Positions 36,438 through 38,998 of a stretch of DNA of 64,000 nt are shown in pieces. This DNA comes from Chthoniobacterales bacterium. GTDB lineage: Bacteria > Verrucomicrobiota > Verrucomicrobiia > Chthoniobacterales > Chthoniobacteraceae. The stretch lies in assembly GCA_038207335.1 (NCBI GenBank), contig JBBQZX010000026.1, positions 22,217 to 86,216 of the forward strand, read 5' to 3'. Under the pieces are notes generated by a model that worked only from the letters and a program-made list of their open reading frames with translations, was not told where the DNA came from and did no database searches. The position numbers and the translations under genes are program-made. Position 1 is the stretch's first letter; every line of letters starts with the position of its first letter.

Positions 36438-36780
36438 GGAAAGTCGGCCGCGCACGCCCTCGTGCGCGTTCGGAGTTTCGGAGGGATTTCGCGCGTGACA
36501 GGCGGTTTCGGAGGCGGGTAGGGTATTTCCGCAGAGATGCGGGAGGATTTTCAACATCGAGGTGGTCGAGCGGCTTTGCGCCCGGAGGGGTTCGCGATTT
36601 CCCCGGTTCGTTCCTGCGGGTCAGGTTGGCGATGTTTGGTCGGAATGCACCATCCTGCTCGGGAAAGATGCTGCCGTCCGAACGGATTTTGCGGTCCTGC
36701 TGGCGCGGTTTTCGCGATTATCCCGTTCACAAATGTAGGGTGATTTTGTGGGTTGAAGCGTAGGCGTCACTCGCCTGCGT

Positions 36781-36906
36781 TTACTTTGTCGGCTTCGCCT
36801 TCTGGCCGACTGGCTTGCTGACCTTCTTCGGCTTCGTCGGCTTAATCGTGAGCGCGCGGCGCATGATCTCGTCGAATCCAAGCGGTTGCGGTGTTTTTGA
36901 TTTCAA
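36781..36906 (-). CDS. Small basic peptide (41 aa) inside the IS
   Basis: TTG start; (M)KSKTPQPLGFDEIMRRALTIKPTKPKKVSKPVGQKAKPTK; followed by hairpin AGCGTAGGCG-TCACT-CGCCTGCGTT. Confidence 0.45.
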   Translation of the reverse strand: MKSKTPQPLGFDEIMRRALTIKPTKPKKVSKPVGQKAKPTK

Positions 36907-37027
36907 GAATTCAACATACCCGAAAGCTACGGCGGCTTCCACTTCAAACTGCGCTGCCCTCTCATTCCATGTGATACTGTTTTTTTTCTGCTTGCGTGCT
37001 ACTTCGGGGCAAGCTATTCGTGCTTCC

Positions 37028-37471
37028 GTGATCACTGCTGAAATTATCAAATCCGAAATTACCGAACTCGATCTGAAACTCTCCGCGATGGAGCCACTTC
37101 GGAAGCGCCGGGACGCGTTGAAGAACCTTCTGGAAACCTACGGCAACGACGAAACTCAACCTCGCTTGCTCGACGCTCCGAGCCTAGCGCCATCTGAACG
37201 CTACAAGTCGCTCGGAACGACACAAGCAATGATGGAGTTCCTGCGAGACTCGCCGGGCGCATATTTCAGCCCGCGTGACATCGGGAAGGCGATGCTGGCT
37301 GGGGGACACGAATCCAAGTCGCCGAACTTTTTCAACATCGTTTACACGATCTGCAAGCGAAAGGGTGAAGCTGGCGATTTCGAGGTTGCGGAACGCAAAG
37401 GGAAAAAAGTTTTCCGACTTCCATCTCAACCAGCCGCAACGACCTCGGCGCAACCACAGGAAGGAAGGTGA
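37028..37471 (+). CDS. IS cargo protein: N-terminal coiled coil plus putative winged helix-turn-helix
   Basis: GTG start; EITELDLKLSAMEPLRKRRDALKNLLE (heptad pattern); QAMMEFLRDSPGAYFSPRDIGKAMLAGG...IVYTICKRK...FEVAERKGKKVFRL (wHTH-like by eye). Confidence 0.6.
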   Translation: MITAEIIKSEITELDLKLSAMEPLRKRRDALKNLLETYGNDETQPRLLDAPSLAPSERYKSLGTTQAMMEFLRDSPGAYFSPRDIGKAMLAGGHESKSPNFFNIVYTICKRKGEAGDFEVAERKGKKVFRLPSQPAATTSAQPQEGR

Positions 37472-37517
37472 AACAACACGTATGAGCAACCAAGCATACG
37501 CAGAAATCTGCGAGCAC

Positions 37518-37685
37518 GGTGACGGCGACACGCCGCCGCCCCAACACCCGGCGCGATTGAGAGATCGACGCTGCGCGCCGGGAAAGAAACAGCCGATTGA
37601 CCTAAAGCAACTTTGAACGGCGCAATGGTCAATCGGCTGGAAACTCGGATCGTCGGGCGAGGGGAAACCCCGCCTTGAACCCTAA
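37518..37685 (+). ncRNA. Putative structured ncRNA/leader: four hairpins with A-rich linkers
   Basis: Stems at 37518-37540, 37547-37582 (9 bp perfect), 37590-37639 (13 bp perfect) and 37656-37674 (GAAA tetraloop). Confidence 0.55.
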
Positions 37686-37783
37686 GCAGGCGTGGCGCAA
37701 ATGGAAGACGCGGAGGACTTGGAATCCTCTGGGTGCCTCTGATCAGGAATACACCCATGCGAGTTCGACTCTCGTCGCCTGCA
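37686..37783 (+). tRNA. Atypical tRNA gene: Leu-type class II body, Pro anticodon TGG, 29-nt variable region
   Basis: Acceptor GCAGGCG/CGCCTGC plus A73; D-arm GGCGCAAATGGAAGACGC; anticodon arm GAGGA-CTTGGAA-TCCTC; T-arm GCGAG-TTCGACT-CTCGT. Confidence 0.88.
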
Positions 37784-37835
37784 ACCTCAACGTCGAATTT
37801 TAGCACTAAAAGTCAACGATGAATTGCAGCACGCT

Positions 37836-38816
37836 TCATTTCTGCTCCGCCAAAGGCTTGTATGTGAGGCGTTTGCCTTCGACTTTTTTCAGTCCGGCAA
37901 CCGTGCGCTCTCCGTCTGAAACCTTGCGGTGATTCCAGCGGAAATCGAATTCTGCAACGTATTTCGGCAGGTGCTTTTTGGAAATGTGGTGGAAATTTCC
38001 GGCGATTCCACGCCGCAAAAGGCTGAATGAGCTTTCCGCGTAGTTTGTCGTGACAACCTCGCCGTCCGCCTCGATGCGGTGATACTCTCGCTTGCCGCGC
38101 AGCTTTGCGTGACGCACTGACTTGTGGACGAACTCTTTCGGTAAATTGATGTATGGCCGACTCTCATCGGTGTTGACCGTCGATCCCGCTTCGACGTGAT
38201 CTTGCACGGCTTTGTGCAATCCCTTGGCCGTTACTCGGTCAAGAACGACGGTTCGCCGGGTTCCAGTGGAACGCTCCACAAGCGCCACAACGCATGATTT
38301 TTCGGCGTGCGCTCCCGGACCGCGAAACTTCGCTTTTGTGCCGATATAGCACTCATCGACCTCGACGATTCCCGAGAGTTTGCCCTCGAAAATTGGATCG
38401 GTCATTGCGTGCCGAATCCGATGCGACATGAACCACGCTGTTTTGTAGCTTCCGAGACCAAGATGCCGTTGAAGCTGCTTTGCGCTCATGCCTTTTTTTG
38501 CGCCGCAAATCAGATACCAAGCAACAAGCCAGATGTTGAGCGGCACATGCGAATCCTCGAAAATCGTGCCGACCGTCACGCGGAATTGTTTCGTGCATTG
38601 AGCGCATTGCCGAATCCCGACGCGGATTTTTTTTGCCGGATTTGATTTGAGATTCCAAAAGAGAAGCTGATCACTGTTTCCGCAATGAGGGCACACGACG
38701 CCATTCTCCCACCGAATCGACTCCAAATATTTGATCGCCGTCTCTTCTGTGGAGAAGCGCAACATGATTTGCGGGAGCGTCAAATCCTCTGGCGTTGGAA
38801 GCAATTTCGTCTTCAT
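37836..38816 (-). CDS. IS1595-family DDE transposase with N-terminal zinc ribbon
   Basis: RWENGVVCPHC...CAQC, GTIFEDSH.PL, YKTAWFM.HRIR, VEVDECYIG, TDE, TNYAESSFSLLRR, EFDFRWNHR. Confidence 0.95.
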   Translation of the reverse strand: MKTKLLPTPEDLTLPQIMLRFSTEETAIKYLESIRWENGVVCPHCGNSDQLLFWNLKSNPAKKIRVGIRQCAQCTKQFRVTVGTIFEDSHVPLNIWLVAWYLICGAKKGMSAKQLQRHLGLGSYKTAWFMSHRIRHAMTDPIFEGKLSGIVEVDECYIGTKAKFRGPGAHAEKSCVVALVERSTGTRRTVVLDRVTAKGLHKAVQDHVEAGSTVNTDESRPYINLPKEFVHKSVRHAKLRGKREYHRIEADGEVVTTNYAESSFSLLRRGIAGNFHHISKKHLPKYVAEFDFRWNHRKVSDGERTVAGLKKVEGKRLTYKPLAEQK

Positions 38817-38845
38817 GGAATCAAAATTCCATTTCTCTCAACATT

Positions 38846-38851
38846 TGTCAA
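38846..38851 (-). promoter_or_regulatory. Consensus -35 hexamer (TTGACA) in the IR upstream of the transposase
   Basis: Present only in this IR (the other reads TTCACA), about 30 bp upstream of ATG 38816; matching -10 is poor. Confidence 0.35.
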
Positions 38852-38998
38852 GGGGATAATCGCGGCGGTTTTGCAACGGTACGGCTGTAAGGGCAGAAAT
38901 CTGACACGACAACCGCACCAACACTCCTATTTCGTCATTTTTTCCCAAAAAAGCTGGCGAACCCGTGTGGTTTGATGTGCGCTATTTAGCCCCTTAAC

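Follow-up and report, generated by a model that had tools for sequence, protein, structure and literature searches.

Which amino acid does a tRNA deliver when its body is that of a leucine tRNA and its anticodon that of a proline tRNA, and why should an insertion sequence carry it? This question is raised by one gene in the window, the 64,000-nucleotide stretch of DNA that was analysed.

37686..37783, plus strand: tRNA gene with a Leu-type class II body and a UGG anticodon (Rfam, cloverleaf fold)

The gene folds into a cloverleaf of 98 nt with the anticodon TGG at 37720-37722 in the loop CT-TGG-AA. Searching with the Rfam model RF00005 gave a score of 46.8 bits (E 7.8e-7) against a gathering cut-off of 29. 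ARAGORN with default settings made no call, and the folding z-score of -1.89 is modest taken alone. The perfect 7-bp acceptor stem with G1-C72 and discriminator A73, as described in the original prediction, was recovered; the second pair is C2-G71, and the acceptor branch is of the 7/5 type. The D-arm comprises a 3-bp D-stem, A15, G18G19, and A20a, the anticodon stem has 5 bp with A37, the 29-nt variable region ends in A47-U48, the T-loop reads TTCGACT, and CCA is not encoded. The earlier account of uniformly intact stems and a long arm holds for the overall cloverleaf and has to be corrected in detail: the T-stem has one G.U pair, and the variable arm is bulged. This is a genuine tRNA gene.

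Comparison with known identity elements was then informative for both amino acids. The E. coli Leu identity set consists of A73, A15-U48, G18G19, and A20a, with C2-G71 directed against SerRS (accessible part of PMC9976931). A73 and the combination of A15-U48, G18G19, and A20a, characteristic of bacterial tRNA-Leu, are present in the window tRNA. One unpaired variable-arm base precedes U48, as in the five host Leu tRNAs and not as in host Ser or Tyr tRNAs; the variable arm is longer than in the host Leu tRNAs (29 versus 13-17 nt). The A35 of Leu isoacceptor anticodons is replaced by G35. From the bacterial tRNA-Pro set, G35 and G36 are present, and C1-G72, G37, G15-C48, and the short variable loop are absent, their places being taken by G1-C72, A37, A15-U48, and the 29-nt arm. 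The Leu identity positions and the TGG at 37720-37722 thus bear out the assignment of a Leu-type body with a Pro anticodon.

The gene lies within a mobile element with the following parts.

36705..36712, plus strand: left target site duplication, 8 bp, sequence GCGGTTTT
36713..38864, no strand assigned: IS1595-family element, 2,152 bp (inverted repeats, target duplication)
36713..36743, plus strand: left terminal inverted repeat, 31 nt, 84% complementary to the right one
36781..36918, minus strand: tiny Lys/Pro-rich open reading frame (ORF) with an uncertain start, also present in related elements
37028..37471, plus strand: passenger ORF, 147 aa, predicted coiled coil and winged helix-like domain
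37482..37616, plus strand: leader ORF, 44 codons, Pro-Pro-Pro run, overlapping a hairpin
37590..37676, plus strand: two hairpins (37590-37639 and 37655-37676) between leader ORF and tRNA
37836..38816, minus strand: IS1595 transposase, 326 aa, intact (PF12762/PF12760, NF033547 above cut-off)
38834..38864, minus strand: right terminal inverted repeat, pairing with the left one
38865..38872, plus strand: right target site duplication, 8 bp, sequence GCGGTTTT

The direct repeat GCGGTTTT flanks the element on either side. Both hallmarks of the IS1595 family were found, namely terminal inverted repeats with an 8-bp target duplication and a transposase with Zn-ribbon and DDE_Tnp_IS1595 domains. The repeats, the duplication, and the transposase of this intact element confirm that the tRNA is IS1595 cargo. 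The element presumably belongs to the IS1595 subgroup with ISNwi1-like ends and passenger genes (a label taken over from Siguier et al. 2009). It is present in one copy in the assembly and has a G+C content of 53% compared to 62% for the genome; the nearest transposases come from Chthoniobacterales records (among the best 80 of 183 matches). The transposase gene and the tRNA gene are arranged tail to tail, with 52 bases between the tRNA and the transposase stop, and the tiny basic ORF is located at the far end of the element. The passenger ORF shares the strand of the tRNA and precedes it. It had no match in Pfam, NCBIfam, or PADLOC; 14% of the members of one Atlas cluster (at 0.92) carry HARE-HTH. 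The leader ORF is preceded by a strong ribosome-binding site, and the hairpin overlapping it has 13 bp. The two hairpins are a possible attenuator or processing signal, and the Pro-run leader with these hairpins could sense Pro decoding, both being candidate roles. A family-wide Pro-run attenuator was rejected, the leader being found in the window, L001, and L410 only. A promoter scan detected no promoter, and no RNA sequencing run was listed as containing the tRNA.

To place the tRNA in a family, two samples were used. The first consisted of 80 loci chosen by transposase alone (best 80 of 183); their Leu-body tRNAs had UGG (8), UUA (3), or CUA (1) anticodons, and 11 of these 12 served to train a tRNA model. 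The second came from scans of viral and metagenome contigs with patterns in which the D-loop (including A15) and the anticodon were fixed. The search for homologues outside this copy, suggested earlier, yielded at least 125 distinct Leu-body UGG sequences, the window's own counted. Among the matches listed, A73 occurred in 121 of 125 members and U48 in 124 of 125, both at positions left free in the pattern; G1-C72 was found in 106 and C1-G72 in 10, A37 in 97 and G37 in 28, an encoded CCA in 27, and all 17 stem pairs were formed in 101. The C13 of the window tRNA is rare (2 of 125 among these matches). A 12-row alignment revealed changes on both sides at 18 of 23 pairs, and pairing dropped to 36-45% in slid controls of this alignment. 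The stem pairs covary and the anticodon is constant; the stems therefore drift while the anticodon stays. Covariation among homologues, the absence of which had been named as an argument against a functional tRNA, is thus present. The view that the gene is no decayed pseudogene agrees with the at least 125 distinct members and their compensatory stem changes, and the same family and the 18 of 23 covarying pairs rule out that TGG arose by misassembly or by one recent change from TAG. The contigs of the sole sequencing run with the tRNA showed no alternative letter, an agreement that is not independent because the run may be the source of the DNA itself. Four UGG Leu-body sequences (L097, L266, L320, and L334) have U73, with an acceptor stem broken in two of them; L266 adjoins a SMODS/DncV-like nucleotidyltransferase gene.

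The codons of the neighboring transposases were compared in 188 distinct genes, 57 with a UGG tRNA and 5 with a UUA/CUA tRNA. The tRNA-less class comprised 89 genes with none detected in adequate flanks, genes with short flanks or odd tRNAs being left out. Two sites, both chosen after the alignment had been inspected, were considered: the linker, 8-10 residues past the HRIR motif, and, at the C-terminus, positions Y+2/Y+3 of RLTYxxL. CCA stood at one or both sites in 50 of 57 UGG elements compared to 9 of 89 tRNA-less elements, and 7 of the 57 had it at neither. Within the UGG genes, CCA accounted for 79 of 91 Pro codons at the two sites versus 65 of 411 elsewhere (core), a contrast that a gene-wide CCA bias would not give. 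The median identity of the compared UGG transposase proteins is 44%. The Y+3 codon is CCA in 29 and a Leu codon in 8 of 51 UGG elements; in tRNA-less elements, an in-frame Leu stands there in 24 of 68, and a Leu lies in the +1 frame in 35 of the other 44. In the UUA/CUA elements, TAG or TAA lies exactly at the motif Leu position (Y+3) in 5 of 5 cases; the reading frame stays open beyond it, and four of the five tails resemble one another. Read-through would add a basic tail of 22-33 aa overlapping the tiny ORF. Beside a Leu-body tRNA with an AGG anticodon, the transposase has only two CCT codons, at the linker and at Y+3. At the family level, the element tRNA thus matches codons of the element's own gene. 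This codon placement lends indirect support to Leu-for-Pro decoding.

The comparison has a phylogenetic side. The tRNA-less set was drawn largely from other clades, and a tree-aware test was underpowered, with only 7 supported independent pairs, about 4 concordant and 0 discordant (p 0.125). UGG-bearing elements are nevertheless dispersed over the tree, with 15 changes of this label, 8 of them forced by supported branches. At the protein level, where codons and tRNAs are not in view, Pro occupies Y+2 in 86 of about 105 close homologues. Renewed searching of 14 tRNA-less loci with filters off revealed no hidden tRNA. Among the genomes of 5 CCA-bearing tRNA-less elements, another Leu-body UGG tRNA was found in one (L449); in this genome-wide search for tRNA supply, 30 of 40 matches were seen as loci. 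In the tiny genes of the 14 UGG elements caught by the tiny-ORF finder, CCA was not enriched (23/110 vs 8/36). A role of the C-terminal CCA as a frameshift site in UGG elements was rejected, the +1 and -1 peptides not being conserved.

A separate observation concerns the tRNA-less elements. A +1-frame motif Leu was seen in L012, L016, L018-L020, L022, L027, L034, L035, L039, L041, L043-L045, L059, and others; in these mostly proteobacterial elements a short basic ORF starts from it, frequently at a Leu codon that is no start codon. Their 3' ends are candidates for a programmed +1 shift that would fuse the transposase to the tiny protein. In the related elements L415 and L416, a TGA is found at transposase Y+2, followed by a Leu codon; a nearby opal suppressor was not found.

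In the window copy, the sites concerned are as follows.

38790..38798, minus strand: CCA codons 7 and 9, N-terminal tail, common to close relatives
38394..38396, minus strand: CCA codon 141, linker between helix-turn-helix region and catalytic core, family-conserved
37851..37856, minus strand: C-terminal motif, Pro321 (CCT) and Leu322 (TTG), from codon alignment

The window transposase has four CCA codons (7, 9, 141, and 221). CCA 141 is common to seven tRNA-bearing close relatives and one relative without a detected tRNA, and it is absent from the tRNA-less relatives L003, L008, L412, L413, L415, and L416. Codon 321 (Y+2) is CCT in the window and CCA in most relatives. The motif Leu is hard-coded as TTG, which would leave CCA 141 of the linker and the CCAs near the N-terminus as targets here. 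In the predicted structure of the window transposase, codon 141 lies within a loop, and helix breaking by Pro141 is unsupported by this model. A predicted helix covers YxxL in a tRNA-less transposase and is absent from the window's, which has Pro at Y+2; the last ten residues have a pLDDT of about 73-75 in both models. A search for a solved IS1595 transposase structure retrieved distant integrase folds only. Because Leu is rare at the linker and codon 141 lies in a loop, the effect of recoding is the weakest step in this copy, where recoding may act on folding or speed and not by restoring a residue.

The reading that we lean towards, at a little above even chance, is that the element tRNA, charged with Leu, recodes CCA at fixed sites in the element's own transposase and that this recoding is likely activating. 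The tRNA would be co-transcribed with the upstream passenger gene, matured and supplied with CCA in the host, and leucylated by the host LeuRS. E. coli LeuRS disregards the anticodon. The charged tRNA would then compete with the host tRNA-Pro at the transposase CCA codons, giving a mixed transposase pool with an activity tied to the tRNA level, in which the Pro form would be the poorer and the Leu form the more active enzyme. As a side effect, host proteins would contain some erroneous Leu in place of Pro. Activating Leu insertion is favored by the Leu identity set, by the placement of the codons at a Leu-canonical position, and by the occurrence of UGG on non-Pro bodies described below. The original prediction had thought of general mistranslation, a decoy, or a processing tag; these have become weaker, and the likely target, the element's own transposase, had been missed.

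The direction of the effect might also be reversed, with Pro as the working residue and Leu, or stop read-through with its tail, damping the transposase as a means of self-limitation. Pro is near-invariant at the N-terminal tail, the linker, and Y+2 in the window's clade, the linker residue is usually not Leu (5 of 79 tRNA-less elements), and read-through in the stop class appends 22-33 aa of basic tail, all of which would suit damping. However, most tRNA-less elements have no Pro in the linker (29 of 80 have one) and have Leu encoded at Y+3, the stop-class product misses the Y+3 Leu unless suppressed, and the predicted C-terminal helix is lost with Pro. Damping is considered improbable.

Charging was considered from the side of the host. 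Its tRNA set includes a normal tRNA-Pro(UGG) and five Leu tRNAs, which rules out an altered host code or a lacking host tRNA. The host LeuRS is of the bacterial type and scored above its profile cut-off. The only ProRS is of the archaeal/eukaryote type (TIGR00408), and the host tRNA-Pro genes have C1-G72. Charging by ProRS had been dismissed on the basis of the missing C1-G72; the tRNA-Pro features are indeed absent, and this argument is weak here because the sole host ProRS is of the archaeal/eukaryote type. For the archaeal-type ProRS of Bacillus thuringiensis, G72C costs 9.6-fold compared to 135-fold for the usual bacterial enzyme, and a eukaryote-type tRNA is not charged (accessible part of PMC11229370). 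The host archaeal-type ProRS might thus charge the window tRNA, and dual charging with Leu and Pro is possible. Beyond the window, the same genome has a pair of initiator-like tRNA-like genes (G000:C6:28239-28312 and G000:C4:14135-14209) with unusual anticodon loops; ARAGORN calls one of these genes Leu(CAG) despite a short variable loop.

Carried further, the tRNA could be a cognate, long-armed tRNA-Pro that an archaeal-type ProRS charges via the anticodon, so that the transposase is made faster and the code is unchanged. The TIGR00408-type ProRS and the low cost of G72C would allow this, as would the members with C1-G72 (10 of 125) or G37 (28 of 125, both among the matches listed). Phage tRNAs with a Leu-like D-arm and a long variable arm (L113, L126, L129, L139, L143, L146, L181, L206, and others) have Asn, Gln, or His anticodons with matching discriminator bases; they are apparently class II versions of class I tRNAs and would provide a parallel. 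Several points make the cognate tRNA-Pro unlikely nevertheless: the archaeal-type enzyme is specific for G72/A73 tRNA according to the same part of PMC11229370, the complete Leu identity set is retained, the UUA/CUA sisters on the same body cannot be Pro tRNAs, CCA occupies a Leu-canonical position, and the host owns a tRNA-Pro(UGG), with CCA making up 14% of its Pro codons (long ORFs).

UGG anticodons were also found on other bodies beside IS1595 transposases. Class I tRNAs with UGG, a Thr-like acceptor, and U73, as in host Thr tRNAs, occur at four loci (L405:1905-1977, L406:2199-2274, L414:4953-5027, and L417:4237-4312), and the neighboring transposases carry the CCA pattern. Ala-like tRNA-like genes with G3.U70 and A73 (L028:4081-4152, L049:3251-3321, L401:4711-4781, and L413:1427-1526) have short D-arms and odd loops, that of L413 with a 30-nt insert within the anticodon loop; three have TGG, with transposase CCA at Y+2 or Y+3. 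UGG on Thr-like and Ala-like bodies beside CCA-bearing transposases fits a need for a non-Pro residue, and a residue other than Pro appears to be the factor shared across the UGG bodies. A scan of viral contigs with a Thr-body tRNA pattern gave no match.

Ser-body tRNAs were seen near IS1595 transposases as well: an AGG tRNA (L006:2030-2132) beside a transposase without CCT, an allo-type UAU tRNA (L015:1043-1128) beside a transposase with one ATA, and a UAU tRNA (L281:5205-5290) with several ATA codons in a second transposase. Tandem irregular tRNA-like genes lie upstream of a suppressor tRNA at L046:4237-4305, L047:4350-4419, L011:3975-4180, and L007:6124-6214 and resemble the polycistrons of Mukai et al.

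The neighborhoods of the UGG tRNAs were analysed as well. Among the matches listed, a transposase was recognized in 39 of the 70 metagenome loci parsed, many of which are short; for metagenome loci with 2 kb on either side the figure was 11 of 16, and for UGG loci on viral contigs 6 of 15. The tail-to-tail arrangement seen in the window element recurred in 42 of 60. In the viral 2-kb set, a transposase was found at 1 of 5 UGG tRNAs and at 2 of 31 long-arm tRNAs with non-Leu/non-stop anticodons. The gene upstream of the UGG tRNA mostly encodes a coiled-coil and winged-helix-like protein and occasionally DUF5343, NYN, P63C, or an HTH-peptidase; a viral scan with the passenger protein as the query gave no match. 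The tRNA might also be a toxic mistranslator restrained by the winged-helix protein and serving addiction or abortive infection, with the transposase codons secondary. Induced missense allo-tRNAs killed E. coli, and such allo-tRNAs lie close to toxin-antitoxin genes (accessible part of PMC5389517). The passenger-plus-tRNA unit is also found where no IS1595 transposase is close by, its neighbors there being restriction, NYN, and phage genes, and 2 of 18 passengers, one of them weakly, match PADLOC PDC-M34A. We doubt this explanation: it leaves the anticodon-matched codons at fixed transposase sites unexplained, the passengers are diverse and mostly without defense matches, and CCA in passenger genes is at background (39 of 252 Pro codons). 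It is compatible with transposase recoding, the two not being exclusive.

A non-translational role, as an uncharged decoy, an RNase P/Z processing tag for convergent transcripts, or a relic, would suit the extra-long variable arm and the placement of the tRNA gene, which ends 52 bases short of the stop codon of the convergent transposase gene; in E. coli, part of the allo-tRNA(UAU) molecules proved inactive (accessible part of PMC5389517). It is very unlikely, as the anticodon is constant while the stems covary and tracks the transposase codons across three anticodon types.

Should Leu-for-Pro recoding of the transposase prove correct, one sense codon would be read in two ways within the same cell, controlled by a selfish element of 2 kb, and programmed site-directed missense recoding would act as a regulatory switch. 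Many annotated IS1595 transposases would contain a wrong residue or a false stop, the soil-bacterial orphan suppressor and allo-tRNAs would receive a function, and the family would offer a natural range of suppressors, both missense and nonsense, that insert Leu. We further propose, with the chances evenly balanced, that each insertion sequence of a widespread class carries a mis-identity tRNA keyed to codons planted in its transposase, so that active transposase needs the tRNA operon. The bodies of such a private code would be Leu, Thr-like, Ala-like, or Ser-like; taken jointly with the programmed missense switch, this proposal could equally well fail or hold. Natural mistranslating tRNAs are known from bacteria; in this compact element a candidate for one comes with defined target codons, so that the question lends itself to direct testing.

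Parts of this arrangement have counterparts in known systems. Programmed frameshifting limits the transposase in IS1 and IS3. There, too, translational recoding gates the transposase, and some tRNA-less relatives of the window element seem to gain Leu in the +1 frame; IS1 and IS3, however, use an mRNA signal only, with no element tRNA and no amino acid swap. With passenger-bearing IS1595 elements, the window element shares the Zn-ribbon, HTH, and DDE domains, inverted repeats of about 30 bp, the 8-bp duplication, and passengers. Searches of the openly accessible literature, judged by search listings and the beginnings of abstracts, gave no account of tRNAs carried by IS1595 elements and matched to transposase codons. 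A UGG tRNA keyed to the transposase of its own element would be a form of element-encoded recoding, with an even chance that it constitutes a distinct regulatory system.

The irregular polycistronic tRNAs and allo-tRNAs of Mukai et al. 2017 (PMC5389517, accessible part) show a mismatch of identity and anticodon, as here, and missense tRNAs of a similar general kind work in E. coli. One allo-tRNA overlaps a transposon-related ORF; a coupling of codons to a transposase was not seen in that part of the paper. A supplement entry from soil metatranscriptomes, "tRNA2, tRNALeu (7/5)" with a UUA anticodon, resembles the UUA sisters, and these UUA Leu-body sister tRNAs are all that is already in print as far as this source extends. 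In a term search, the supplement had no entry with a UGG anticodon and no "transposase" or "IS1595". Allo-tRNAs have 8/4 or 9/3 branches and are Ser-type, whereas the window tRNA is 7/5 and Leu-type; membership was rejected because the 8/4 or 9/3 branch and the tRNA-Sec-like D-arm are absent (7/5 branch, 3-bp D-stem).

The Streptomyces tRNA-ProX/ProRSx pair (accessible part of PMC11415595) is similar in that a natural dual-identity bacterial tRNA mistranslates. It represents the reverse case, with a Pro body, an Ala, Asn, or Thr anticodon, and a dedicated synthetase, in contrast to the Leu body and Pro anticodon of the window element, which has no synthetase. Membership was rejected on structure, since a Pro body, an A34 non-Pro anticodon, and a linked ProRSx are missing. 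The closest logic is that of phage suppressor tRNAs with recoded late and lysis genes (accessible part of Borges et al., bioRxiv 10.1101/2021.08.26.457843), where a mobile element likewise supplies the tRNA for the genes that it gates. Phage recoding concerns stop codons and many genes, whereas here it would concern a sense codon at a few fixed sites in one gene of a 2-kb insertion sequence.
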